Source: an uncultured Pelagibacteraceae bacterium (GTDB lineage: Bacteria; Pseudomonadota; Alphaproteobacteria; Pelagibacterales; Pelagibacteraceae). Taken from it: DNA of 64,000 nt. A program made the position numbers and the translations under genes. Below the pieces are notes generated by a model that saw only the letters and a program-made list of their open reading frames with translations, searched no databases and was not told where the DNA came from. The stretch lies in assembly GCA_902607735.1 (NCBI GenBank), contig CACLLG010000002.1:6635-70634 (forward strand). The letters run 5' to 3'. Positions 27,557 through 64,000 of this stretch are shown here, piece by piece. How positions within the stretch are numbered: position 1 is the first letter of the stretch; each line of letters starts with the position of its first letter.

Positions 27557-27570
27557 ATGCAATAAATAAA

Positions 27571-27598
27571 TTGAATCTTTAAAATAAAGTTTTATATT
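27571..27598 (+). promoter_or_regulatory. Candidate sigma70-type promoter for ssrA
   Basis: TTGAAT (27571-27576), 16 nt spacer, TATATT (27593-27598). It would place the TSS near 27605, giving an acceptor-piece precursor of about 80 nt. Confidence 0.35.
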
Positions 27599-27779
27599 AT
27601 TAGTGTTGGATTTCCAACTATGACGATAAACGAATTTCGTAATAAACATTGCGGACGTGGGGGCAGTACCCACCACCTCCACCATTTACAACTTATGGGG
27701 GTGAATCAGAATCGACGAGTGTCTAAAAGCTATTCTTTCGTTCGGGATTGTTCCGTCGATATCGGGCTAATATATAATT

Positions 27780-27809
27780 GCAAATGATAAATTTGCTCTC
27801 GCTGCTTAA
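27780..27809 (+). other. tmRNA tag-peptide reading frame (ANDKFALAA, stop TAA)
   Basis: Resume codon GCA and an AND...LAA pattern, as in alphaproteobacterial proteolysis tags. Confidence 0.7.
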
Positions 27810-27832
27810 ATTTATTTAAGAAAGCGCGGCTT

Positions 27833-27866
27833 GGGGCACCGGGCAACAGAACGCCCCTTTTATTTT
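27833..27866 (+). terminator. ssrA terminal hairpin plus T-run (intrinsic terminator-like)
   Basis: GGGGC (27833-27837) and GCCCC (27853-27857) flank a 15 nt loop, followed by TTTTATTTT. Confidence 0.55.
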
Positions 27867-42795: not shown

Positions 42796-42912
42796 TGCCG
42801 GCAACGTCCTACTCTTCCATACCTTAAGGTAAAGTACCATCGGCGCTGAAGGGCTTGACTTCCGAGTTCGGAATGGGATCGGGTATGGCCCCTTCGCAAT
42901 AATCACCGGCAC
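42796..42912 (-). rRNA. rrf: 5S ribosomal RNA
   Basis: The minus strand reads GTGCCGGTGATTATTGCGAAGGGGCCATACCCGATCCCATTCCGAACTCGGAAGTCAAGCCCTTCAGCGCCGATGGTACTTTACCTTAAGGTATGGAAGAGTAGGACGTTGCCGGCA. This includes the universal CCGAACTC...GAAGT...GCGCCGATGGTA core and complementary termini. Confidence 0.9.
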
Positions 42913-42981: not shown

Positions 42982-43056
42982 TGGTGGGTGTGATAAGAAT
43001 CGAACTTATGACCTCTACGATGTCAACGTAGCGTTCTACCACTGAACTACACACCC
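42982..43056 (-). tRNA. tRNA-Val (anticodon GAC)
   Basis: The minus strand reads GGGTGTGTAGTTCAGTGGTAGAACGCTACGTTGACATCGTAGAGGTCATAAGTTCGATTCTTATCACACCCACCA. It has a 7 bp acceptor stem, anticodon stem CTACG/CGTAG with loop TTGACAT, a GTTCGATTC T-loop and an encoded CCA. Confidence 0.9.
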
Positions 43057-47685: not shown

Positions 47686-49242
47686 TTACAAAAATCCTTT
47701 TATTAAAGCTTTTCCGCCCTTAAAATATCTTTTAATATCCTCAAAGCTTCTGATTTTTAAAATCCTCTTGATAACATAACTTGGTCTTAAATAAAATTTT
47801 CTAAACGCATAGCGTTCCATATTTTTTAACTCTTCTGCATTTTTGTATCCAAATGGTAGCCATGTGACTTTCCACATATTATATTCTTCTAGATCGTGAG
47901 TAAGAAATTTTCCCCATTTCCCTTTATGTATTTCATCGGCTAATTTAGTTCCTGGATAAGGACAGCATACTGTGAATTGAGCATAATCAGGATCAAGATC
48001 TATTGCTGTTTGAATTGTTTTTTTAGCTAATGCAGGAGTTTCTCCAGGCAAACCAACTAAAAAACCCGCTCTTGTTTCGATCCCAGCTTCTCTAGTCCAT
48101 CGAGATATTCTTTTCATTTTTTCAAAATCTCTATTTTTTTTATTTGTGAGTATATTTTTTGCTAATTCTTCAACGCCAGTTTCATAACCAAAAAATATAT
48201 TCCAACAACCTGATTTTCGCATTTTTTTAAGTAAATCTTTATCATCTACCGTATTAACAGCAGCACAACAAGTCCAGCTCACATTTAAATTTGCTTCAAT
48301 TAATAGATCCAGAAATTCGTTCATCCACTTTTTGTGATAAGCCATTGTATCATCCCAAAATGATATTTCTTTCATTCCATAATTGTCAACACAATCTCTT
48401 ATTTCATCAATTACTTTTTGTGGACTTCTTCTTCTAGCTCCTGTGCCTGCTTGATCGCAAAATGTACAAAAATAAGGACACCCTCTAATAACAATCATAT
48501 TAGTTGCTGGCAATTGTTTGTAATTATTGGGTAGTGGCAAATATCTTTCCGTTGGAAAAAGATCTCTGGCAGGAAATGGCAATTCATCTAAATTTTCAAT
48601 AAGCTCGCTGGGTTTATTCCGAACTACAACATTATTTTTTTTAAAAATAATTCCCTTAATATTTTCCAAAGTTTGAAAATCTTGTAAAAATAAATCTCTA
48701 TTAAAATTTTTTTCAGAATATTTTTTGACAATATTGTGAATTATGTATTCTCCATCTAATCCGTACGCAATAATATCAAAATACTTACCATACTCATTAG
48801 CTGTTTCAATTCCAGCAACATTAGTATGTGATCCTCCAACTACAGTTAATTTTTCTGGTAATTTATCCCTAATTTTTTTTGCAATATCTATTGCTCTACT
48901 AAGAGAATATGTTGTTGTAGAAAAACCAATTATTGCTGGATCTTTTGTCTTTATTATTTCATAAACCTTGTCGGCATCTATTCTTAATGTCGGACAATCT
49001 AAAACGCCAACGCCACAACCTTGTTCTCTTAAATATCCAGCCAGGCAAGCTATGCCTAAAGGAATCATATCACCACCGATTTCTCCTAAATCTTTCCTAC
49101 CATATCTTTCAGATAACGTGGATGGTGGATTAATTAACAAAATATCAATCTTGCCATTTTGCGGAGCAAAACCTCTTTCGATTAACTCTTCAGTAGTAGG
49201 ATCTACTTTTAAATTTTTTTTTGAAAAAGGATTTATATTCAT
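47686..49242 (-). CDS. B12-binding-domain radical SAM protein (class B)
   Basis: 518 aa. N-terminal cobalamin-binding-type Rossmann region (IIGFSTTTYS...LTVVGGSHTN), then CPYFCTFC (CxxxCxxC). Confidence 0.8.
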   Translation of the reverse strand: MNINPFSKKNLKVDPTTEELIERGFAPQNGKIDILLINPPSTLSERYGRKDLGEIGGDMIPLGIACLAGYLREQGCGVGVLDCPTLRIDADKVYEIIKTKDPAIIGFSTTTYSLSRAIDIAKKIRDKLPEKLTVVGGSHTNVAGIETANEYGKYFDIIAYGLDGEYIIHNIVKKYSEKNFNRDLFLQDFQTLENIKGIIFKKNNVVVRNKPSELIENLDELPFPARDLFPTERYLPLPNNYKQLPATNMIVIRGCPYFCTFCDQAGTGARRRSPQKVIDEIRDCVDNYGMKEISFWDDTMAYHKKWMNEFLDLLIEANLNVSWTCCAAVNTVDDKDLLKKMRKSGCWNIFFGYETGVEELAKNILTNKKNRDFEKMKRISRWTREAGIETRAGFLVGLPGETPALAKKTIQTAIDLDPDYAQFTVCCPYPGTKLADEIHKGKWGKFLTHDLEEYNMWKVTWLPFGYKNAEELKNMERYAFRKFYLRPSYVIKRILKIRSFEDIKRYFKGGKALIKGFL

Positions 49243-51840: not shown

Positions 51841-52749
51841 TTAATCTTGGTAAAACCATAAAAATTTCTTTAATATAATTCCTGGCATAATAAGTATAAA
51901 TAAATTTTTCATGTTAAATATATTGCTTTTTCGATTTAGTAAAATATTAAAGCACTCTTTATATTTGCCATCAATTTTGTAATTTACAAGTTTATAGTAA
52001 TCAAGTTTATTTTGTATATTTCTAAAATTAAATTGACTTAAATCATCTTTGTTTTCATTCAACCATATCTCATGTTCTTTAATTTCTTTTTCTTTTAAAA
52101 TAGCTGACAAATTACCAGCGTGTAATCTATAAAAAGCTAAAGGTTTTTGAACACTTTCAAAAATACATAATTTTGAAAGCCTTAAAAATAAATCAAAATC
52201 ACCTATGATTGAAAATCGTTCGTCAAATTTCTTTTTTAATTTTAAATAAAATTTTTTTCTTAAAACTACCGTTAAAATTCCTATATTATAATTTTTTATT
52301 AAATCGTCATAAATAAAACCTCGAGGCAAATTTTTTTTTGTATATATTTTCTTTTTATTCATATTATTTTTAATAATCCAAAGATTGCTATAAACTAAAC
52401 CTACTTCTGAATTACTAAAAAAGCCCATTTGCATCTCAAGTTTGTCTTTGCTCCACATATCATCAACGTCCAGGAAGGCGATAAAATCGCCATTTGATTT
52501 TTCTATTGCCAGATTTCGCGCTTCATACAATGCTGTATGTTTGTCTGCGTCAAAATACTTAAACCTTTTGTCATCATAACTTTTAAATATTTTTGCGCTT
52601 TTATCTTTTGATTTGTTATCCCAGAAAATTATTTCCCAATTTTGATAAGTCTGATTTTTTATACTTTCAATAGAATCTTTTAAAAAGTTTTCACCATTAA
52701 AACAATTCATTATTATGCTTACTAATGGTTTTTTGTTATTTATTTCCAC
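51841..52749 (-). CDS. GT2-family glycosyltransferase
   Basis: 302 aa. VSIIMNCFNGENFLKDSIESIKNQTY...FWDNKS and FLDVDDMW. Confidence 0.8.
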   Translation of the reverse strand: MEINNKKPLVSIIMNCFNGENFLKDSIESIKNQTYQNWEIIFWDNKSKDKSAKIFKSYDDKRFKYFDADKHTALYEARNLAIEKSNGDFIAFLDVDDMWSKDKLEMQMGFFSNSEVGLVYSNLWIIKNNMNKKKIYTKKNLPRGFIYDDLIKNYNIGILTVVLRKKFYLKLKKKFDERFSIIGDFDLFLRLSKLCIFESVQKPLAFYRLHAGNLSAILKEKEIKEHEIWLNENKDDLSQFNFRNIQNKLDYYKLVNYKIDGKYKECFNILLNRKSNIFNMKNLFILIMPGIILKKFLWFYQD

Positions 52750-53474
52750 TTAAATTTACTTTTTTTATAAATTTTTTCTAATACTTCTTTGTCACGTTTG
52801 GTATCCATACATTTCCAAAAACCTTTATGCTTAAATGCATAGAGCTGTTCACTTAAAGAAGCTTTTTCTAACGGTTCTTTTTCTAAAATTGTTGTATCTC
52901 CTTTAATTAAGTCAAAAAAATCATATTTGGCAATAAAAAAACCACCATTTATCCATCCTTCTGTAACCTGTGGTTTTTCTTTAAATGAAATTACTTTATT
53001 TTTTTTTAAAAGAATCTCACCAAATCTGGCTGGTGGTCTTACTGCTGTAACAGATACTAACCTATTATGTTTTTTATGAAATCTTTCTAAACTTTTTAGA
53101 TTTACATTAGAAATTCCATCTCCATAGGTAAACATAAAGTTTTCTTCTCTGTTAATAAATTTTTTTACTCTCCTTAAGCGTCCACCCGTAAATGTCTTTG
53201 CACCCGTATAAATTAATGTAATTGTGCAAATTTTGTTATTTATTTTGTGATGAAATTTTTTATTAAGATTTTTAAAATTTTTGAAATATTTCGTTACTAC
53301 ATGACTTTTATAACCTAGCGCAATATAAAAATCATTGTAATTATACTTTAGATACTGTTCCATTATATGTACAAGCAGTGGCTTATTACCAATTTTTACC
53401 ATCGGCTTAGGTACAGTATTTGTATGTTCGGCAAGTCTTGTTCCAAGGCCTCCAGCTAACAAAATAACTTTCAT
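52740..53474 (-). CDS. rfbF: Glucose-1-phosphate cytidylyltransferase
   Basis: 244 aa. MKVILLAGGLGTRLAEHTNTVPKPMVKIGNKPLL, and WKCMDTKRD near the C-terminus. Confidence 0.8.
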   Translation of the reverse strand: MKVILLAGGLGTRLAEHTNTVPKPMVKIGNKPLLVHIMEQYLKYNYNDFYIALGYKSHVVTKYFKNFKNLNKKFHHKINNKICTITLIYTGAKTFTGGRLRRVKKFINREENFMFTYGDGISNVNLKSLERFHKKHNRLVSVTAVRPPARFGEILLKKNKVISFKEKPQVTEGWINGGFFIAKYDFFDLIKGDTTILEKEPLEKASLSEQLYAFKHKGFWKCMDTKRDKEVLEKIYKKSKFKWK

Positions 53475-53478
53475 AAGT

Positions 53479-54582
53479 TTAAAATATTTTTGCGCATTTT
53501 GAACCTTTTTTAATCATTAAATATTGATATTTTTTTATTTGCTCATTTGTATTGTAAGCGGCATTTTTTGGATTCTGGTAAAATTTACTATACCAGTTTG
53601 ATACCATGTCCATTACTTCATCTAATTTGAGAATGCTCTGCCATTTCAAAATTTTTTTAGCCTTTTCACAATTCAATCTTAATAACCCCGATTCATAAAA
53701 TTTTTTTTTAGAATCTGAACTTATTTTCCAATGGACATTATTCCAATATTTGTTCATTGATTTCATTACATCTAAAACAGTAAACTCTTTAGATAAATTT
53801 GGTCCAAAATTAAATGGTTGACCATGCAATTTTTTATTTAGTTTTAAATTTACTGCTAAACATAAATAACCTCCCGCTGCTTCAAGTACATGCTGCCACG
53901 GTCTTGTCGATTTTGGATTTCTAATAATTACTTTTTTTCCTTTAGACCATGATCTTACACAATCAGGTATAAGACGATCTTGTGCCCAATCTCCTCCCCC
54001 AATAACATTTCCTGCTCTAGCTACACCAATTATCACCTTGGTTTTTTTTAATGGAAAAAACGATTCAATATAAGATTTAATTAAAAGTTCTGCTGATGCT
54101 TTTGAGGCGCTATAGGGATCATGACCTCCTAAAGAATCGTCTTCTTTATATCCTTTTTTTTGCTCAATATTTTTATAACACTTATCGCTTGTTATAATTA
54201 CAGCTACACATTTTTTTTTCATTTCTCTGAGTGATTCTAAAACATTTAGAGTTCCAATTAAATTTGTATGCCAAGTTTTATTTGGATTTTTATAAGATTT
54301 TTTTACAAGAGACTGTGCCGCTAAGTGAAAAACAAAGTCAGGTTGATATTTTTTAAAACATTTTTTTAGAGAATTTAAATTTCTAATATCCCCTCTTACA
54401 TCAGTGATATTTTTATTTATTTTAGCAGAAATGTAATGTGAAGGCTTGGTTGGCACACTTATTGAAAATCCAATAACTTTGGCTCCTAAATTTTTTAGCC
54501 AGCATGTCAACCACGATCCTTTAAATCCAGTATGACCTGTAACAATAATTTTCTTGTTTTTAAATATTTTTTTTAAATTCAT
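53479..54582 (-). CDS. rfbG: CDP-glucose 4,6-dehydratase
   Basis: 367 aa. VTGHTGFKGSWL, YSASKASAE (YxxxK), TRPWQHVLE. Confidence 0.8.
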   Translation of the reverse strand: MNLKKIFKNKKIIVTGHTGFKGSWLTCWLKNLGAKVIGFSISVPTKPSHYISAKINKNITDVRGDIRNLNSLKKCFKKYQPDFVFHLAAQSLVKKSYKNPNKTWHTNLIGTLNVLESLREMKKKCVAVIITSDKCYKNIEQKKGYKEDDSLGGHDPYSASKASAELLIKSYIESFFPLKKTKVIIGVARAGNVIGGGDWAQDRLIPDCVRSWSKGKKVIIRNPKSTRPWQHVLEAAGGYLCLAVNLKLNKKLHGQPFNFGPNLSKEFTVLDVMKSMNKYWNNVHWKISSDSKKKFYESGLLRLNCEKAKKILKWQSILKLDEVMDMVSNWYSKFYQNPKNAAYNTNEQIKKYQYLMIKKGSKCAKIF

Positions 54583-54632: not shown

Positions 54633-55145
54633 TTATACTTGATACTTTTTTATGTATTTGTGTGCCAAAAATGCAGTGTAAGAAAAAACTAGAGTAGATA
54701 AGAAAGTATTTTTAAAAAAAGGTATGGCAAGGAAATAACAATGAACTAGACCATCAAAACTTTTTTCATACATCGAGCTAATAGCCCAAACTCCAAAGTT
54801 TGAAATAATAAAGAATATAACCGACCCAATAAAACCAAATATAAATAAATTTTTGAAATTAATTTTCCAGTTTGTTTTAAAAAAAACAAAAGTTATTACA
54901 AGCAAAGACATATATACGAAAATCATATGACCATAAAATCCAATAAAAAAATCGGCTATTAACATTGAAATTATCATAGTTGCAAAAGATAAATAAATGT
55001 TTCTAAAAAAATAGCTACTCATTATTGCGACAGCTATAACTGGAGTAAAATTTGGTGGATGAGGGATTAGTCTAGCTAATGCTAAAATCAGTATAAAACT
55101 AATTGGAACAATTTCTTTATCTAAATTTTTTAATAAATTTTGCAT
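54633..55145 (-). CDS. Small polytopic membrane protein (DUF6580-like), possible inner-membrane vitamin transport component
   Basis: 170 aa, 5-6 TM. LARLIPHPPNFTPVIAVAI N-terminal motif as I recall for DUF6580. Lies 4 nt downstream of the BtuB-like gene, so is probably co-transcribed. Confidence 0.45.
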   Translation of the reverse strand: MQNLLKNLDKEIVPISFILILALARLIPHPPNFTPVIAVAIMSSYFFRNIYLSFATMIISMLIADFFIGFYGHMIFVYMSLLVITFVFFKTNWKINFKNLFIFGFIGSVIFFIISNFGVWAISSMYEKSFDGLVHCYFLAIPFFKNTFLSTLVFSYTAFLAHKYIKKYQV

Positions 55146-55149
55146 TAAC

Positions 55150-57063
55150 TCAATATACCCTTCTTATTCCAAAATTAAAAGACCTATCCATTTGTGAATA
55201 ATCTCTAACGGTCTCATATTTTTCATCTAAAATATTATTTATATCAAAAAATAGATTGTAAGTGTTCCATAAATTATATTTTATTGATAAATCATTTACT
55301 AAATAATCATCTAAACCTTCATCTTGATATGTTCTGTTACCATTCCCATAATCTCTTGCTTCATCAGACCATTTAGTATTCAACGTTAAATCTAAATTTT
55401 TATAACCTGGAATTTTTATATTTGTTGCTAAATTAATAATATTTCTGGGGACTCTAACCATTTGTGCCATGGTATAAGCGTGATTTTTATCGGGATCATC
55501 TTGTTCTGCACCATCGTACGTAGATGTATAAGTATAATTTAAATCAAAATTTAATTTATCACTTTTTTTCCATTTTGAAACTAATTCCAAGCCTTGAGAT
55601 TCAACAACTCCAGGAAAATTATATGACTCCCAAGTTCCTGTTCCTTTCCAACCTTCAATTGTATCATTATATTTTATGTTAAAATAAGAAGCATCTATAC
55701 TTAATCCTAAATTTGAAAAAGATTTTTCAATTCCTAAATCGAAACTTTCACTAGTTTCCGCTTTCATTGAAGAATTGAATGAGTTAAGCCAATTAAGTTC
55801 ATAAAGAGAAGGAAAACGAAATCCTGTTCCATAAGAACTTTTTAATTTTGTAGATTTATCATCAAAAAGATAAGCTAATGTTGCTCTGTGTGAATCTTCG
55901 TTGCCAGCATGTTTGTGTTCATCAAATCTTGAACCGAATGTCGCATAAATATTATTAGTAACTCTGCTTTGATAATCAAAATAGGTTGATGTTACATATG
56001 CATGGTCATCTATACGACCAGCCATGTCTTTGTTGTATCCCATTTTATCCTCTTCTCTTTCAAACCCAAATACAACACTGTTATCAAGATTAAAATTATA
56101 ATTACCTGAGTATATAAACCCATATCTAGTTCCATAATAATTATCTTGAGCTATGTTACCGCTATTTGGAGTTTCCGCAGCGATTCTTTCGATATATGTA
56201 TTTGCTAATGTTAATTTATTAATGAATTGACTATTTGGTTCATAAATTAAAGATATATTTGATGAAGACTGTAGAGCATCTAACTCTTCACTATGATCTG
56301 CCGAAGCGGTATCCAATTCTTTATCATACTGAGAGTAAGTTTCAGCAACTCTTAGATTACTTTCAAATTTTATTTTTTCAGAAAATTTATGTGCATAATT
56401 TGCAACTATAGTATTGTTTCTGTATCTATCTTTTTCATCATTATGTGTCATTGCTGACATACCGTTAGTATGGAATCTTTCTAAACCGATACGAAAATTA
56501 TCATTTTCATCTGCTCCAGAGAATGAAAGTGATAAATTATTGGTTCCGTGAGATGCATGATTATATTGTATATTTTTTTGAAAACCGGGTTCACCTTTTT
56601 TAGTCGTAATATTTATAGTTCCTCCTATAGCTCCACTTCCATAGACGGAACTTTGATTGCCTTTTAAAATTTCTACCCTGGCTATTTGGCTTGTTAAAAT
56701 ATGATTAAAATTAAAGTCGTTCGATGGACTTGCTGGATCAGACATTTTAACACCATCAATATAAACAGTTGAATATCTTTTTGGTAAACCTCTCAATTGA
56801 ACAGCTGAAGTTTGTCCTTGGCCACCATTTTGAAAGAAATTAATGCTTGTTGAGTTCGTTGCTAAAGCATCTCCTAAAAAAAGCTCATTTGAATTTTTAA
56901 AAAATGTTTCATCAAACACTGCCACAGAGGTTCCAACAGTTGAAACAGATTGTGCTTTTTTGCTTGGAGCTATAACAATTATAGGTATATCTGCAGCAAA
57001 AACACTATTTATTGGGAAAGATAGAATTATAATTAGTTGTATTATTCTTTTTAGCATAAGCAT
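55150..57063 (-). CDS. btuB: TonB-dependent outer-membrane receptor, BtuB-like (vitamin B12 transporter candidate)
   Basis: 637 aa. Signal peptide, TonB-box-like IPIIVIAPS, plug motifs (VQLRGL, VYIDGV, RVEILKGNQSSVYGSGAIGGTINI), and a beta-barrel ending FNFGIRRVY. Size is close to BtuB and a cobalamin riboswitch lies directly upstream. Confidence 0.8.
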   Translation of the reverse strand: MLMLKRIIQLIIILSFPINSVFAADIPIIVIAPSKKAQSVSTVGTSVAVFDETFFKNSNELFLGDALATNSTSINFFQNGGQGQTSAVQLRGLPKRYSTVYIDGVKMSDPASPSNDFNFNHILTSQIARVEILKGNQSSVYGSGAIGGTINITTKKGEPGFQKNIQYNHASHGTNNLSLSFSGADENDNFRIGLERFHTNGMSAMTHNDEKDRYRNNTIVANYAHKFSEKIKFESNLRVAETYSQYDKELDTASADHSEELDALQSSSNISLIYEPNSQFINKLTLANTYIERIAAETPNSGNIAQDNYYGTRYGFIYSGNYNFNLDNSVVFGFEREEDKMGYNKDMAGRIDDHAYVTSTYFDYQSRVTNNIYATFGSRFDEHKHAGNEDSHRATLAYLFDDKSTKLKSSYGTGFRFPSLYELNWLNSFNSSMKAETSESFDLGIEKSFSNLGLSIDASYFNIKYNDTIEGWKGTGTWESYNFPGVVESQGLELVSKWKKSDKLNFDLNYTYTSTYDGAEQDDPDKNHAYTMAQMVRVPRNIINLATNIKIPGYKNLDLTLNTKWSDEARDYGNGNRTYQDEGLDDYLVNDLSIKYNLWNTYNLFFDINNILDEKYETVRDYSQMDRSFNFGIRRVY

Positions 57064-57079
57064 TCAATTTTTTGCCACT

Positions 57080-57225
57080 GCTAATTTTGCATCGTAGAAC
57101 TAGACTTTTCCTGGCCTTCGTTCAACAGCGGACTATACTGGGTGGAGCTCGGACTATCTTATACTTCTAAACCGTTGCAGGAACAGTCAATGAATTTCAC
57201 ATTGTTTCCCACCATGCATTTCAGT
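57080..57225 (-). promoter_or_regulatory. Cobalamin riboswitch (compact, class-II/AdoCbl-variant-like architecture)
   Basis: The minus strand reads GGTGGGAAACAATGTGAAATTCATTGACTGTTCCTGCAACGGT...AGTCCGAGCTCCACC. It contains GGGAA, hairpin CAATG-TGAAATT-CATTG (GGUGaaAAuCC-type), CCTGCAACGGT (CCCGCaACUGU-type), and a B12-box-like AGTCCGAGCTCCACC whose CCACC pairs with the 5' GGTGG. Boundaries are approximate. Confidence 0.7.
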
Positions 57226-57234
57226 ACAATTTTG

Positions 57235-57263
57235 TAATTACGTTAAAACATCTTGCTTGTCAA
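57235..57263 (-). promoter_or_regulatory. Candidate sigma70-type promoter for the riboswitch-btuB transcript
   Basis: On the minus strand: TTGACA (57263-57258), 17 nt spacer, TAATTA (57240-57235). Confidence 0.4.
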
Positions 57264-57291: not shown

Positions 57292-59091
57292 TTAGCCTGG
57301 TTTAAATTTAGACAAATTTAAATCATTTATTAAATTCATACCGTTTGTTAAATATTTCCTTAATCTTTCAAATTCCGATGTATATTCTTGAACTTTTGTA
57401 TCATTATTAATAAATTCTCTTAAAACATTTTCAATAGAATTTAATGAATAAGAATTTGTAAATTTAAAATCTTTTTCAAAAATATCCAAATAATTATCCA
57501 TGAGATTAAGTTCACTTCTTAAATTTAACACAATATTACCATTTAACGCAGCATTGTATGCTGCGCCAGTAGACAAAAAAATTGCAATAGAGCATTCATC
57601 TAAAAGTTTATCAACATCATCGTTAGATACAAAAGTATTTTTTGAAAGTTTTTTTAATTCCACTTGGGTTAATATTTTTGTAATGTTTAAATTTGGATGT
57701 GGCTTTATAATAAAATTATAATTGGTATTTTCTAGCCTGCTGCTTAGTTTTATTACACTATTTATTAATTCAAAAGATGCATCTCTTACATGGGACAAAG
57801 GTATTAAAATATAATTTTTTTTCTTGGTTAATTTTTTTTTCTTAACCAGTAAATTGTTATATCGTAAAGCTGGCCCTTCAATAATTCTTTCATTTGGAAT
57901 GCCTTGTTTCTTAAGCATTTTTGTTGAAACGGAACCTAATGATATAACGTAGTCAGGTTTAAACTTACTCGTCCATTCAGAATTAAGACTATGCCAAGCT
58001 GTAAATTCTCTGCTGGACAAAGTATGATGGTATCCAATAATTTTTGTTTTTATTTTTAGTTCTCTTGCAGCTGATATCAAAGCCACTTCAAAGTTCATAT
58101 TTTCATAATGGTCTATGCAGGTTAAAGAATCGCAGTTTTTTGTCCATTTTTTTAGAGCTGGTTGATATATCCAAAATCTTAGGTTGTAATTAAGCTGCTC
58201 TAAATAAAGTCTTTTTTCTCTTAAGATTAAATAACTTATATCTATGCCAGGATATTTAGATTTAGTTTCAAAACATGATTTTACCCTTAATAGATTTTTT
58301 ATGGCAGAAATATAATCTCCAAAATTTATCCAGTCTTCTGGGACAAACGAATTGTCTTTTCTTATTTTTTTTAAGGCTTTTATTTTTCCAGACCAAAAAA
58401 TAAAGGACCAGGTAAGAAAATATAAATCAATTTTTTCTTTTGAAAAATACTCTTTTAAATATGGAAAATATCTTGATTTTAAATTTTTGTTTCCTCTTAA
58501 TGAATCAATCTCTGAGTATTGATGAATCAAACATATATTTCCTTTTGGTAATATTTTTTTTCTCAAAGTAATTTTTGCGGAAATAGCATTAAAAATTAAA
58601 TCGAGAACGCCTATTCCTAAATTTTTTAAAAACTTAAAATAATGTATAAATAAATTTTGTAAAATTTTAAATTTAATTAAATTACTTTTCTTAATCAATA
58701 GATAATCAAAATTTTTTATTATAGCCTGAATTAAAAAAATATCATCACTTACAATTAACAATTCTTCTTCTTTAAAATTGTCTAAAATTTTTTTTAATGA
58801 CTTTATTTGACATATATATAAAAAAAAGTTTGAATTAGCATTATTTCTTCCAGCTAATTCAGTCATCCACCAATGAACACTATCATTAAAATGTGTTCTT
58901 TGTTTTTCTGTCCATTCTAAATAATTTGATAACTCTTGATCAAAACTTTCATGTAAAAATTCATTTATTTTTATTTTTTGTCCAATAATTTTTTTTTCAA
59001 CTAATGATAATTTTTTAAATGAAGAACCTAAAAATATCCATTTTTTAGTCCATATTAATTTTTCATCATAATGTGCTATTTTAATTTTCAT
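57292..59091 (-). CDS. Hypothetical protein, possible GT-B/TagF-like surface-carbohydrate biosynthesis enzyme
   Basis: 599 aa soluble ORF. The C-terminal half has a Rossmann-like pattern (IIGYHHT..., YILIPLS..., IIKPHPN, FLSTGAAYNAALNG) reminiscent of CDP-glycerol transferase or capsule GT-B enzymes. No firm family call. Confidence 0.35.
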   Translation of the reverse strand: MKIKIAHYDEKLIWTKKWIFLGSSFKKLSLVEKKIIGQKIKINEFLHESFDQELSNYLEWTEKQRTHFNDSVHWWMTELAGRNNANSNFFLYICQIKSLKKILDNFKEEELLIVSDDIFLIQAIIKNFDYLLIKKSNLIKFKILQNLFIHYFKFLKNLGIGVLDLIFNAISAKITLRKKILPKGNICLIHQYSEIDSLRGNKNLKSRYFPYLKEYFSKEKIDLYFLTWSFIFWSGKIKALKKIRKDNSFVPEDWINFGDYISAIKNLLRVKSCFETKSKYPGIDISYLILREKRLYLEQLNYNLRFWIYQPALKKWTKNCDSLTCIDHYENMNFEVALISAARELKIKTKIIGYHHTLSSREFTAWHSLNSEWTSKFKPDYVISLGSVSTKMLKKQGIPNERIIEGPALRYNNLLVKKKKLTKKKNYILIPLSHVRDASFELINSVIKLSSRLENTNYNFIIKPHPNLNITKILTQVELKKLSKNTFVSNDDVDKLLDECSIAIFLSTGAAYNAALNGNIVLNLRSELNLMDNYLDIFEKDFKFTNSYSLNSIENVLREFINNDTKVQEYTSEFERLRKYLTNGMNLINDLNLSKFKPG

Positions 59092-59197: not shown

Positions 59198-60784
59198 CTA
59201 ATCATGCAAATCAAGCATTGTAGCTTCACTTAAACGATACTTTTGATCAAATTCTTCTCCCAACTTTTTGTGCATAGCATTTCCTTTGGGATTTGATTGT
59301 TCTGCTAATTTAATATCATTCCATCTACTTTCAGGAAATTTCACATAATAACTGAATGTTCTTGCTAAACCTGAAATTTCTTCCTTTGATATTGTGGGCA
59401 TATTCAGCATACTGAATGCTGTATTAGATATTGATGCTATTACATCTTTTTGAATATAGCCCTTTCTAATAGCCAAGTCTCTCAAAGGGGTTCCATGATA
59501 GGGTGCCCAAATAAATGCACCTGTGGCATCAATATTTTTTGGTAATTTTCTCATAAACTTAATCGTATCAAAAATTAAATTTCTGTTTTCGTCTGGCATA
59601 CCAATTATTGCATTTGCACAACTAACATACTTTTTGTCAGCAAGCATTTCGAAAGCCTTAATTTGAACTTCGTCAGACACATTTCTTTTTAAATATTTTT
59701 TTCTATATTCTGTATTCCCATGCTCAACACCTATGCTAGTTCTAAGCATATTCATATCTTCTAAGCCAGCAGCTCTATGTTCATTTATAGTTTCAGCCCT
59801 AGTATTCATCCAAAAAGGAATTTTATAGTCCATATACATTTCTTTAAATTCATCAAAATCTCTATCCGACATTGCTAAAAATGTATCAACAACCATATAG
59901 ATCAAGTCTGGATTATATTTTTTGACCAAAAAGTCTAATTCTTGCTTCATTCTTTTTATTGATTTTTTTCTATGAAAAATTTTTTTTGTTTCATCTTTAT
60001 ATACAACATTGTTAGAGGGAGAATTACAGAAAGTGCATGTATAGGGACATCCCCTTTGTGTTTCAAATCCAACTGCTCTATAAATTTTTCCTTGCATTGG
60101 TCTATAAATACTACCAGGTTCAAACAAATCCCAATTTGGAATTGGAACAGTATCAATATCTACTGCTGGTCTAAGGCTATTTCTATAAACCGTACCTTCA
60201 TTTTTAACGAAAAAATTTAAAATGTTATCTATTCTATCTTCTGTAACTAATTTCTTACAAAATTCTTGAATTGCTGCTTCTCCTTCTCCTCTACAAACAT
60301 AATCTACTAATTCATTTTTAATACATATTTCGGCAGCATATGTAGCGAACACTCCTCCAAATAAAGTCTTATAATTTCTATCCTTTTTTTCAACTGAGTT
60401 CAGAAGTTCTAATGCCAAATAATAAGTGCTTTCTAAGACTGAGCATATTATTAAATCTGGTTTAAATTCTTTGACTTTTTTTACAAAATCTTCTTTTATG
60501 CCAATTTTTGGTTTGGCTCCCTTTTTTTCCCACTCAGAATTATCATGTTTTCGAACTTGCTTATTTTCTATTTTTTCATCAGTTGTATTTTTGCCCAGAT
60601 TAATTGCATTAATATCTTGATAAAAGGTACAATCGAAAAGATCTAACGCATATCCTTCTTCCTTTAAAAGAGAAGTGAATATACCGATGGACTGTGGCAT
60701 TAAAGCGCTCATGTGAAGATTAGGATAAAATAATAAAATCCTAAAATCTTTTGGGCGTCTTGATGAAAAAGGTGATTTCAACAT
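59198..60784 (-). CDS. B12-binding-domain radical SAM protein (class B), paralog 1
   Basis: 528 aa. PDLIICSVLEST...LFGGVFATYAAE...CRGEGE (B12-binding-domain pattern), then GCPYTCTFCNSP. Confidence 0.8.
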   Translation of the reverse strand: MLKSPFSSRRPKDFRILLFYPNLHMSALMPQSIGIFTSLLKEEGYALDLFDCTFYQDINAINLGKNTTDEKIENKQVRKHDNSEWEKKGAKPKIGIKEDFVKKVKEFKPDLIICSVLESTYYLALELLNSVEKKDRNYKTLFGGVFATYAAEICIKNELVDYVCRGEGEAAIQEFCKKLVTEDRIDNILNFFVKNEGTVYRNSLRPAVDIDTVPIPNWDLFEPGSIYRPMQGKIYRAVGFETQRGCPYTCTFCNSPSNNVVYKDETKKIFHRKKSIKRMKQELDFLVKKYNPDLIYMVVDTFLAMSDRDFDEFKEMYMDYKIPFWMNTRAETINEHRAAGLEDMNMLRTSIGVEHGNTEYRKKYLKRNVSDEVQIKAFEMLADKKYVSCANAIIGMPDENRNLIFDTIKFMRKLPKNIDATGAFIWAPYHGTPLRDLAIRKGYIQKDVIASISNTAFSMLNMPTISKEEISGLARTFSYYVKFPESRWNDIKLAEQSNPKGNAMHKKLGEEFDQKYRLSEATMLDLHD

Positions 60785-62407
60785 TTATCTCATCTCATCT
60801 CTATGCGCAGGATTGTTTTCAACCAGGGTATTGTTTGGATCCTCTATATTCTGAAAATCTTCTACGCCTCCATGAGGATCGGCGTCGGGTTTTGGCATGT
60901 ATTTTTCTAGAAATTCTACCTTCAAATTTTTATAAATTTTATTTCCTTCATCTGTATTTTTTTCAGCTTTTTTAATTTCAGGCCATCTACTTTTTGGGAA
61001 TTTTACATATAGAGCAAAACATTTTTTTATTTCTTCTATCTCGTGGGGTGGATACTGTGGCATGTTTAGTTGAGCTTCGCTAGTTACACACTTAGTTATT
61101 TTTTGTGAATCTATAAGACCCTGCTCTTCGCACATTTTTCTTAAAGGTGTTCCGTGAAAGGGAACAAAAGCATATATATTAGAATTATCGGAATCTATCT
61201 GTCTATTTATCTCAATCGTATCAAATGCAAGTTTTTTTGTTTCTGTTGGAAAGCCTGTAATATTATTTACACTAAATGCAATTCCATATTTTTTTGGTAT
61301 TTTAAGTTTTGCGATTATATCTTTGTTTTTCCATCTTCTATCTAGTATTTTCTTTCTAAACTCTTCGTTACCATGCTCCACTCCAAAAGAAACTCTATGA
61401 AGACCTACAGATTTTAACTTTTTCATATTATAGTCTGTAATTGTTTCTGGTCTAGTTTGTATCCAAAAAGGAAGTTTTATATCACTATACATTTCACAAA
61501 ATTGATCAAATTCATTACCATTCATGGCTAAAAAAGTATCAGCCCAAAAATAATTATATTCTACTTTATGAACTTCCTTAAAATGTTTTAGTTCTTTATA
61601 AACAAGATCCATTCTTTTTTTTCTATAAAAATTTTTTCCTAAACCTTTATATAATCTCATCTGATCTGGGGAGTTACAAAAAGTACACGTAAATGGACAT
61701 CCTCGAATTGTTTCAACTGGAAACATTTTATAAACTCTTCCAGCCATTGGTCTATAAAGGCGATTTTCTTCAAATAAGGCTGTGTCAATAATAGGATTTT
61801 CATTAATATCAACAGGATCAGAAATACTATTCTTTTCAATAATTTCATTATTATTTTTTATCCAAACATTTGTTATTTTTGAAAAATCATTTTTACTCTC
61901 GATTTTTTTGCATAGATCAATTAAAGCATTTTCGCCCTCCCCCACGCATACCATATCGATCAAGTCATGCTTGATGCATATTTCTGGAGCAAAAGTAGGG
62001 AAAACGCCTCCTGCAATAACAGGAATCTTGTTTGCAATTTTATATTCTTTTATTTCCTCTAAAATTCTAATGCCTAGTTCCCACATATCTTCCGTGGCTG
62101 ATAGAGCTATCAGATCTGGTTTATATTCTTTAACTTGTGTTTTTACATCCTTTCGCCAATCGGTGTTCTTGACCTCAAGTTTTTTCTTTTTCATCTGTTT
62201 TGTAAACGGAACTACATTTAATCTTTCTTCCTTAGATCCATCAGAATCAATTGCATGATCTGTTTTATAATAAGTAGTATCAAAAACACGAACTTCGTGA
62301 TTATGTTGTTTTAAAATAGCAGAAAACAGAGCTATAGCTGGTGGCAGCATATTCATGCCGAACGAATTTGGATATATAAATAAAACTTTTATTCCCATAA
62401 AATACAA
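60785..62407 (-). CDS. B12-binding-domain radical SAM protein (class B), paralog 2
   Basis: 540 aa. PDLIALSATEDM...IAGGVFPTFAPE...CVGEGE, then GCPFTCTFCNSP. Colinear with paralog 1 along its whole length. The stop abuts the paralog 1 start. Confidence 0.8.
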   Translation of the reverse strand: MYFMGIKVLFIYPNSFGMNMLPPAIALFSAILKQHNHEVRVFDTTYYKTDHAIDSDGSKEERLNVVPFTKQMKKKKLEVKNTDWRKDVKTQVKEYKPDLIALSATEDMWELGIRILEEIKEYKIANKIPVIAGGVFPTFAPEICIKHDLIDMVCVGEGENALIDLCKKIESKNDFSKITNVWIKNNNEIIEKNSISDPVDINENPIIDTALFEENRLYRPMAGRVYKMFPVETIRGCPFTCTFCNSPDQMRLYKGLGKNFYRKKRMDLVYKELKHFKEVHKVEYNYFWADTFLAMNGNEFDQFCEMYSDIKLPFWIQTRPETITDYNMKKLKSVGLHRVSFGVEHGNEEFRKKILDRRWKNKDIIAKLKIPKKYGIAFSVNNITGFPTETKKLAFDTIEINRQIDSDNSNIYAFVPFHGTPLRKMCEEQGLIDSQKITKCVTSEAQLNMPQYPPHEIEEIKKCFALYVKFPKSRWPEIKKAEKNTDEGNKIYKNLKVEFLEKYMPKPDADPHGGVEDFQNIEDPNNTLVENNPAHRDEMR

Positions 62408-63184: not shown

Positions 63185-64000
63185 TTATTTTACCTCCTGC
63201 CAAGCTCGAGCATGATCACCACCCATGTATGTTCCCGTAACATCGCACTTATCACATGGTGCAAAATTTCTATTTGCTTTAAAAAGATTTTTTCTTGCAA
63301 AACTAAATTTTTTACTCATCCAAATATCAATGAAACTTTCATTTTTCAAATTTCCTACAACTAATTTTTTACCCCAATCGTGTGAACAAACTAATACTTC
63401 TCCTGTGTAGTCCATAAAAAAAGTATAGTGCGGGTAGTAACAAGGTTTTTTCATTGGTTCTTTTAATGACGGAATAACATATTCTGCTTTCTCCATCATT
63501 CCTGCTCTGTTACTTAAGGTAATTCCAAAACTGTCACTTTCCGGTAAATATCTGTGTCTAACTTTAAATTGTTCATCAGTTAAATCACAATCTCGTAAAA
63601 GTTTTTCCATTTCATCAGCTTCTTTTTTTCCATCATAAATACTAACTAACAAAGTAGATAGTCCTGAACTAAATAATTGTTTTGCTCTTTGTGTGTCGAG
63701 CACATCTCCATTTGTTACCATTTCTATTTTTGCCTTCGGTAAATTATTTCTAACTATATTTATAAGATTATAAATATTTTTATCTAACATAGGTTCAACA
63801 AATCCCGAGAACAAAAAAATTCCACTGTAGTCATAGTTAGATAATTCTTTAGAAAGTTTTACAATAAGATCTTCTGATATAAATTCTTTTATATCTGGAA
63901 AATCTGGTGCACTTCTTGGACAAAAACTGCATACTCTATTACAGGTTCCTGATTCGCTTATTTCTATAACTGAAGGTAATGGTATACTTTTTTTAAAAAA
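63185..64000 (-). CDS. Radical SAM protein with SPASM/twitch domain; N-terminus runs off the window
   Basis: The ORF track starts at a TTG (63814), but the frame stays open to position 64000. Upstream it reads ...KKSIPLPSVIEISESGTCNRVCSFCPRSAPDFP..., containing CNRVCSFC (CxxxCxxC). C-terminal Cys cluster: CYYPHYTFFMDYTGEVLVCSHDW...APCDKCDVTG. Confidence 0.8.
   Translation of the reverse strand, partial: FFKKSIPLPSVIEISESGTCNRVCSFCPRSAPDFPDIKEFISEDLIVKLSKELSNYDYSGIFLFSGFVEPMLDKNIYNLINIVRNNLPKAKIEMVTNGDVLDTQRAKQLFSSGLSTLLVSIYDGKKEADEMEKLLRDCDLTDEQFKVRHRYLPESDSFGITLSNRAGMMEKAEYVIPSLKEPMKKPCYYPHYTFFMDYTGEVLVCSHDWGKKLVVGNLKNESFIDIWMSKKFSFARKNLFKANRNFAPCDKCDVTGTYMGGDHARAWQEVK

Follow-up and report, generated by a model that had tools for sequence, protein, structure and literature searches.

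In the ocean, where vitamin B12 (cobalamin) is a scarce, traded micronutrient, SAR11 outnumbers every other bacterial clade. According to published descriptions, its members neither synthesize B12 nor depend on it (PMC3476827, PMC8552899), the cultured strains HTCC1062 and HTCC1002 are reported to have 0 TonB-dependent transporters (PMC3400609), and whether B12 regulates btuB in SAR11 has been stated as unknown (PMC9296465). The stretch of DNA analyzed here, a window of 64,000 nucleotides from an uncultured Pelagibacteraceae bacterium (contig CACLLG010000002.1, assembly GCA_902607735.1), raises the question of what a cobalamin riboswitch and a gene for a TonB-dependent receptor are doing in such a genome. 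Our answer is that they probably form part of a cobalamin-repressed two-gene corrinoid-uptake operon of uncultured SAR11, located inside hypervariable region 2 (HVR2). The parts are all of known kinds; the combination and the host lineage are new. Coordinates refer to the window, L-numbers are labels of the loci compared, and counts of neighbouring genes cover the fetched flanks of these loci.

The 228 nt gap 5' of the receptor gene had been predicted from the letters of the sequence to carry a cobalamin-riboswitch core on the minus strand. An Rfam scan of the whole window identified the following element there.

57135-57227, minus strand: class-II cobalamin riboswitch aptamer (RF01689 AdoCbl-II; Rfam cmscan), made up of P2/P3 outer helices; P4, which has the T-loop-like GUGAAAUUC; P5, whose loop (L5) is UCCU; and P6, whose variable loop is 21 nt long

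This match reaches 82.5 bits where the Rfam gathering score is 36.5, has an E-value of 3.3e-19 over the whole window, and extends along the full model (positions 1-81 of 81). The motifs pointed out by the original prediction all align to the RF01689 core: GGGAA, the CAATG-TGAAATT-CATTG hairpin, which is P4, and CCTGCAACGGT, which is P5/P6. The B12-box-like AGTCCGAGCTCCACC and its pairing to GGTGG correspond to P3 and the B12 box in the same alignment, and the covariance model also bears out the proposed class-II/AdoCbl-variant type. The riboswitch was found 5' of the receptor gene in 22 of 22 species-representative Pelagibacteraceae loci. Scanned by covariance model, six of the 22 loci score 74.6-101.4 bits and three additional lineages from metagenomes score 68-75.6 bits, and the Rfam gathering score is passed at every locus scanned in this way. 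When the 22 leaders are aligned, 98.2% of cells are paired compared with 27-47% in slid controls, explicit pair counting yields seven pairs with compensatory changes compared with 0-2 in the controls, and 0 of 500 shuffles reach the observed score. Helices P3-P6 are upheld by compensatory changes, with both sides changing at pairs 26/42, 46/53, 57/85 and 17/94. Folding the single leader sequence to its minimum free energy (MFE) was uninformative (z -0.89) and failed to recover the aptamer. As judged from its sequence and from that of its relatives, the leader RNA is a class-II riboswitch predicted to bind cobalamin.

How such an RNA might act on the receptor gene can be read in part from the sequence that follows the aptamer. 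Conservation extends 62 nt beyond the Rfam model, and the elements considered between the aptamer and the start of the receptor gene are the following.

57073-57134, minus strand: conserved regulatory domain 3' of the Rfam aptamer, near-invariant across the 22 leaders and recovered by RNAalifold
57124-57133 (5' strand) and 57074-57082 (3' strand), minus strand: long-range helix enclosing a P13-like hairpin, from RNAalifold and pair counting
57097-57123, minus strand: P13-like hairpin, with loop CAGGAAAA (L13) at 57106-57113 complementary to L5
within 57073-57134, minus strand: small variable hairpin, following the P13-like hairpin
57051-57084, minus strand: candidate sequestor hairpin UUAGCA/UGCUAA plus GGCA/UGCU, predicted from the MFE fold

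RNAalifold and explicit pair counting agree on the P13-like hairpin, GAAY-GAA-GGC[CAGGAAAA]GUC-UA-RUUC, and its pair 117/137 covaries (UA in 9, CG in 7 and UG in 6 of the 22 leaders). L5 UCCU is complementary to L13 AGGA; the three core pairs (CCU/AGG) are invariant in 22/22 leaders and the fourth is unpaired in 7. Since the three core pairs never vary, they are compatible with the model and provide no covariation evidence, and assignment of a kissing loop rests on analogy with env8, an RF01689 member from a marine metagenome that regulates via an L5-L13 kissing loop and prefers hydroxo- or methylcobalamin (PMC5028336). The window RNA shares with env8HyCbl its Rfam family, a four-way-junction aptamer without a large P6 extension and an L13 complementary to L5. 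The two differ in that the ribosome-binding site of env8HyCbl is in L13, whereas L13 of the window lies about 45 nt 5' of the start codon, inside a conserved three-way domain closed by the long-range helix, which competes with a hairpin at the start codon.

In the sub-clade to which the window belongs, the start codon follows 10 nt after the long-range helix, and the 3' strand of this helix can alternatively pair with (A/G)UGCUUAUGCUAA, burying both start codons. The sequestor hairpin is part of the MFE fold in 7/7 leaders of the sub-clade and would bury the in-frame start codons at 57061-57063 and 57055-57057. It is mutually exclusive with the long-range helix, and the two states are about 0.3-3 kcal/mol apart in all seven leaders. 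We tentatively propose, at somewhat less than even confidence, a sequestor/anti-sequestor switch at the start codons. When cobalamin is sufficient, ligand binding would let L13 dock on L5, as in env8; docking would keep the linker AGUCCGCUGUU single-stranded and free UUAGCAGUGGCA, which would then pair with (A/G)UGCUUAUGCUAA, bury the start codons and stop translation. When no ligand is bound, formation of the long-range helix would leave the start codons accessible. That the switch runs in this direction is part of the proposal. Two observations weigh against it: the kissing-loop pairs and the sequestor hairpin are invariant and hence without covariation support, and L13 is far from the start codon instead of holding the ribosome-binding site as it does in env8.

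The position of L13 also fits a riboswitch that acts on transcription, by Rho-dependent or intrinsic termination or by mRNA stability, or one that acts as an ON switch, and env8 regulation is known to alter mRNA abundance as well (PMC5028336). Furthermore, a long-range helix stabilized by docking would expose the start codons, which is ON logic, and in deeper clades the same aptamer and P13 domain is joined to another platform, which includes an additional hairpin and a GGAG Shine-Dalgarno. On the other hand, no terminator-like hairpin with a U-run was found on the coding strand of the leader, and the sequestor hairpin belongs to the MFE fold of every leader in the sub-clade. Uptake genes under cobalamin riboswitches are repressed by the ligand, which also argues against ON logic. 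Action other than by hiding start codons is possible but appears doubtful to us, and repression at the start codons is the mechanism that we carry forward.

Two further features of the leaders were noted. In L014-L019 and L022, this additional hairpin has the form CUCUAAAC-N4-6-GUUUAG(A/G) and is placed 3' of the regulatory domain, ahead of the receptor start codon; its 5' CUCUAA could instead pair with the UUGGAG/AUGGAG Shine-Dalgarno, which would make it a second type of platform. A three-codon mini-ORF (open reading frame), AUG-CAA-AAU-UAG, occurs at 57081-57092 on the minus strand of the window, 16 nt past the L13 AGGA, and was found in 14/22 leaders. A coding role was rejected, as its AUG is missing in 8/22 leaders and it is spaced too far from the AGGA; the element probably represents a structural hairpin.

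What does the riboswitch control? The two genes of the operon and the promoter proposed to transcribe them are as follows.

57235-57263, minus strand: candidate sigma-70-type promoter, with -35 TTGACA at 57258-57263, a 17 nt spacer and a weak -10 TAATTA at 57235-57240
55150-57063, minus strand: TonB-dependent outer-membrane receptor of 637 aa, with a signal peptide, the TonB-box-like DIPIIVIA and Pfam Plug and barrel domains
54633-55145, minus strand: DUF6580 polytopic membrane protein of 170 aa (PF20221, 133.7 bits), 4 nt past the receptor gene

The original prediction of a TTGACA-17-TAATTA promoter fared differently in its two halves. In 11/20 homologous leaders the -35 element recurs as TTGAC[AT] at a constant distance (-45 to -51 from P3), where chance would give about 3% per leader, and the promoter is supported comparatively because of this conservation. 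The -10 element is poor, agreeing with TATAAT at 2/6 positions, and the site does not pass a consensus promoter scan; that scan found no excess of promoter-like sites in the window (37 found compared with 43 expected). Transcription from this promoter would start about 35 nt 5' of the class-II riboswitch.

The proposed identity of the 637 aa protein as a TonB-dependent receptor is borne out by its Plug (PF07715, 70.9 bits) and TonB_dep_Rec_b-barrel (PF00593, 111.3 bits) domains, and an N-terminal TonB-box-like motif of the DIPIIVIA type is kept in 23/23 receptor relatives. The name "BtuB-like" holds in part. The best NCBIfam model is that of the TonB-B12 family, TIGR01779, which matches the receptor over the full length with 175 bits, the next family reaching 107. 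Several results weigh against an assignment to BtuB. Scores are far below the BtuB cut-offs (175 compared with 599.7 bits for TIGR01779 and 106.9 compared with 836 bits for NF007926), CirA (75.7 bits) outscores BtuB (59.4 bits) among solved structures with the match mostly in the plug, and the AlphaFold model of the receptor, built on a shallow alignment, is of low confidence (pLDDT 39.2, pTM 0.28). In addition, no TonB, ExbB or ExbD was identified among ten size-appropriate ORFs of the window or among small ORFs 5' of the receptor gene in eight loci. Since the BtuB cut-offs are not reached and CirA scores above BtuB, the substrate of the receptor is inferred mainly from the riboswitch, which suggests that the protein would bring a corrinoid into the periplasm.

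The arrangement resembles E. coli btuB, in which a cobalamin-binding leader also precedes a TonB-dependent receptor with plug, barrel and TonB box, and repression by sufficient B12 would be expected in the same way. It differs in having a compact class-II riboswitch (RF01689) and not the long class-I riboswitch of E. coli, in a receptor that is only distantly related, and in an inner-membrane partner that shares the operon with the receptor and takes the place of BtuCDF.

This partner, noticed from the outset as a 170 aa polytopic protein following the receptor after 4 nt, gave a DUF6580 match when checked against that family. The AlphaFold2 model (pLDDT 79.9, pTM 0.76) has the fold of a substrate-binding S-component of energy-coupling factor transporters, and the best fold match found by Foldseek in the PDB is BtuM with cyanocobalamin (8c7p; TM 0.64/0.61, probability 0.99), with ThiT, FolT and further S-components next in rank. 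BtuM, a solitary S-component and B12 transporter, is encoded beside btuB in many proteobacteria and has enzymatic (decyanase) activity (PMC6072759). BtuM of Thiobacillus denitrificans and the DUF6580 protein are both small (about 20 kDa) polytopic proteins of S-component fold (TM 0.64), encoded beside the gene of an outer-membrane B12 receptor in Gram-negative bacteria. They belong to separate Pfam families with no detectable sequence or profile similarity, and the axial cobalt ligand of BtuM, Cys80 in loop 3, is without an established counterpart in DUF6580.

From its fold and the gene order, the SAR11 operon would work like a btuB-btuM pair in which the second place is taken by another protein family. 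DUF6580, with 6-7 helices and a fold nearest to BtuM, would move the corrinoid over the inner membrane. We slightly favour DUF6580 as a candidate inner-membrane cobalamin transporter on its modelled fold, gene order and co-regulation. Several results count against this assignment: Foldseek E-values are weak (0.33 for BtuM, range 0.33-3.5) at 12% identity, phmmer and profile searches with DUF6580 against PDB chains gave no match at E <= 10, BtuM included, and the cobalt-ligating cysteine of BtuM lacks an established match. Close DUF6580 relatives keep Cys136, which is not invariant, being Ala in L003; the invariant polar residues across the family are R25, H29 and D65.

The distribution of DUF6580 limits how far a B12 link can be drawn. 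The gene lies 3' of the receptor gene in about 19/23 loci, and is absent in L014 and L015; in L010 and L020 the contig ends at this place. L014 and L015 have riboswitch and receptor with no DUF6580 gene within about 10 kb downstream, so that the receptor can occur without its operon partner. DUF6580 as a whole comprises 4,032 representative clusters. In four distant lineages, 0/4 have a riboswitch or a receptor as neighbour, which also weighs against a cobalamin role and rules out a B12 link across all DUF6580. Intermediate relatives (43-48% identity, three lineages) have riboswitch and receptor in all cases and a B12-radical-SAM (S-adenosylmethionine) gene beside the module in two. Because these intermediates keep the B12 context and the four distant lineages are without it, the link is limited to the Pelagibacterales branch of DUF6580. 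We found no mention of DUF6580 in the literature.

A distant, non-SAR11 DUF6580 gene overlaps an upstream DUF4430 gene at L032:2596-3520, where no riboswitch is present. The DUF4430 family, PF14478, corresponds to the transcobalamin/intrinsic-factor beta-domain, and this overlap might independently point to cobalamin.

The absence of a B12 context from distant DUF6580 members also suits another possibility, namely that the receptor imports cobinamide or another corrinoid fragment, cyanobacterial pseudocobalamin or a non-corrinoid compound and that DUF6580 is a processing or accessory protein instead of a transporter. The receptor is as much CirA-like as BtuB-like and falls short of the BtuB equivalog cut-offs, DUF6580 resembles BtuM at the level of fold only, and BtuM is itself an enzyme. 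Against this, a cobalamin riboswitch stands before the receptor at every locus examined, and cobalamin riboswitches control genes of corrinoid transport or synthesis. The S-component fold is a fold of substrate-binding transporters, and the class-B radical SAM enzymes encoded nearby need an intact corrinoid cofactor. We consider a different substrate very unlikely and retain import of cobalamin by both proteins.

What would a SAR11 cell do with imported cobalamin? The genes that may answer this question lie in the island around the operon.

47686-49242, minus strand: class-B radical SAM gene (PF02310 58.1 bits, PF04055 70.5 bits, motif CPYFCTFC)
59198-60784 and 60785-62407, minus strand: tandem class-B radical SAM genes (PF02310 48.1 and 48.7 bits; PF04055; motifs CPYTCTFC and CPFTCTFC)
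53479-54582, minus strand: rfbG, CDP-glucose 4,6-dehydratase (TIGR02622 458.7 bits, above cut-off)
52740-53474, minus strand: rfbF, glucose-1-phosphate cytidylyltransferase (TIGR02623 270.3 bits, just below the cut-off of 300.25)
42982-43056, minus strand: tRNA-Val(gac) (RF00005 75 bits, ARAGORN), island edge on the 5S side
42796-42910, minus strand: 5S rRNA (RF00001 89 bits), island edge on the 5S side

The three radical SAM genes had been recognized as class B, and each was found to encode a B12-binding domain above the PF02310 cut-off of 32.1 bits, a radical SAM domain above the PF04055 cut-off (62-70 bits across the three) and one CxxxCxxC motif. The N-terminal B12-binding domain and CxxxCxxC radical SAM core are shared with the class-B families PhpK, HpnJ/HpnR and BchE; the three enzymes of the window differ from these in reaching no curated cut-off and in being encoded in a surface-polysaccharide cluster. 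For the gene at 47686-49242, the best NCBIfam matches are partial ones to HpnJ and BchE, far below their cut-offs.

Genes of this type recur beside the module in other genomes. A B12-binding radical SAM gene was present in 11/22 other genomes, interleaved with or abutting the operon in at least six lineages. Orthologues of the 59198-62407 pair (66-72% identity) adjoin the module in L008, L012, L022 and L024. In L013 (12055-13725), a 556 aa radical SAM protein is encoded between the receptor and DUF6580 genes, with a permuted order in which the radical SAM domain is N-terminal and the B12-binding domain C-terminal; L024 has a B12-radical-SAM gene in the same place on the opposite strand; and in L010, L022, L023 and L033 such a gene directly follows the operon genes. 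These findings point to, at slightly better than even confidence, use of the imported cofactor by the neighbouring radical SAM enzymes, which would probably modify surface sugars, most likely by methylation.

The module is not always found in this company. L001, L005, L007 and L009 hold it at a fixed non-island site, in the order DUF4346, riboswitch, receptor, DUF6580, thioesterase and PDH E1 (pyruvate dehydrogenase E1); the 10 kb around it are free of radical SAM genes, and L003, L015 and L017-L019 are also without a radical SAM gene in the flanks. Such loci weigh against the link to the island enzymes and could mean that the operon takes up B12 in general, for B12-dependent functions encoded elsewhere, and stands beside island radical SAM genes by coincidence. 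HVR2 is known to gather strain-specific functions (PMC3448164), and a region that collects accessory, surface-exposed genes would suit a receptor usable by phages for reasons of its own. The repeated co-occurrence is nevertheless hard to put down to chance in a clade whose reference genomes have been described as free of any B12 requirement (PMC3476827). A general-uptake role therefore seems unlikely to us, and supply of the neighbouring radical SAM enzymes is preferred. The original prediction that the island supplies its own B12-dependent enzymes is thus supported by the loci where the two occur together, a link that is not exclusive, given the four loci at the non-island site.

The island setting was established from its edges and its gene content. 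From 43066 to the end of the window, we identified glycosyltransferases, methyltransferases, a protein with a Wzy-type O-antigen polymerase/ligase domain and sugar-nucleotide enzymes. On its 5S side this island is bounded by tRNA-Val and the 5S rRNA, which stands apart from the other genes of the rRNA operon; the window does not reach as far as the 23S gene. In L018, L021 and L037, the module abuts the 23S 3' end of a 16S-tRNA-tRNA-23S cassette, and in L012 it is near tRNA and 5S. HVR2 is defined as the SAR11 hypervariable region between 23S and 5S rRNA (PMC3448164). The tRNA-Val/5S edge and the position of the module next to 23S or 5S in relatives fit this definition, and the island of the window is HVR2. 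It also resembles published SAR11 HVR2 regions (PMC3448164, PMC2217521) in being an rRNA-bounded island rich in glycosyltransferases, methyltransferases and sugar-nucleotide enzymes; two SAR11 comparative-genomics papers make no mention of B12, TonB or radical SAM content for HVR2. The rfbG/rfbF genes (52740-54582) are co-directional with the operon and begin 50 nt past the DUF6580 gene, a spacer without a terminator-like site, and L012 shares this order. Read-through into rfbG/rfbF, as first suggested, is therefore conceivable, but no positive sign of it was found. All three spacings, including those on either side of the receptor gene, are as first described.

The original prediction had also suspected a SAR11-type genome with an unusual accessory trait, and the distribution of the receptor agrees. 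The GC content of the window (29.6%), its two-piece alphaproteobacterial tmRNA and its detached 5S rRNA likewise point to Pelagibacteraceae. Its close relatives (76-100% identity) form more than 120 clusters, found only in marine metagenomes and in genomes labelled Pelagibacteraceae, and a scan of one genome per species turned up receptor relatives in 22 genomes, each an uncultured Pelagibacteraceae single-cell assembly. Receptor identity drops to 46% within Pelagibacteraceae with the riboswitch still present, and the GC content of the gene is 30.2% compared with 29.6% for the window. On this native composition, together with deep divergence within the family, we rejected recent horizontal import. 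The possibility that the module is routine core content, raised at the outset, was checked as well; its position differs between genomes, so it is not core content. The module is an accessory unit, ancient in the clade and compositionally native, often but not always beside class-B radical SAM genes.

New here are DUF6580 in place of BtuM or BtuCDF, the elaborated regulatory domain and the tie to surface-glycan enzymes. At least 22 uncultured SAR11 species-level lineages share this conserved uptake operon, which is under riboswitch control and tied to enzymes that depend on B12, and if it is functional, part of the SAR11 population would be a B12 sink, DUF6580 would gain a testable function and the surface-glycan island a vitamin dependence. 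It is conceivable, if rather speculative, that many wild SAR11 lineages are regulated B12 consumers which take the vitamin up through the receptor and the SAR11 branch of DUF6580, a hitherto unrecognized family of inner-membrane cobalamin transporters on this view, and use it for radical SAM diversification of HVR2 glycans. If so, B12 availability would be coupled to the cell-surface type of SAR11 and possibly to phage susceptibility, and the methyl- or hydroxocobalamin that a class-II riboswitch should sense would be the form in which the radical SAM enzymes use their cofactor.

A number of minor observations concern the surroundings of the module. A protein of 125-131 aa with DUF4346 (PF14251) and no evident signal peptide flanks the module in 5/5 loci outside sugar-modification clusters (L001:972-1355, L002:12469-12846, L005:8807-9193, L007:1788-2171 and L009:3127-3522). 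Its gene lies 5' of the riboswitch in four of these loci and 3' of DUF6580 in L002, and does not occur in the window. This protein shows weak similarity to MtrA-type and dihydropteroate-synthase-like proteins in their C-terminal part (TIGR00284, 54 bits).

In the window, the place directly 5' of the riboswitch is occupied by a 599 aa gene (57292-59091, minus strand) with no Pfam domain. Its product has a partial match to TIGR04326, "surface carbohydrate biosynthesis protein" (74 bits compared with a cut-off of 250), and a 35%-identical counterpart is encoded 5' of the radical SAM gene in L008. Farther along the same strand, 63185-63814 encodes a SPASM-domain radical SAM fragment of 209 aa with a TTG start, which is without the N-terminal part that would hold CxxxCxxC; the gene may be longer, frameshifted or decayed. 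Finally, a two-piece (permuted) alphaproteobacterial tmRNA was detected at 27567-27860 on the plus strand (RF01849, 234.7 bits).

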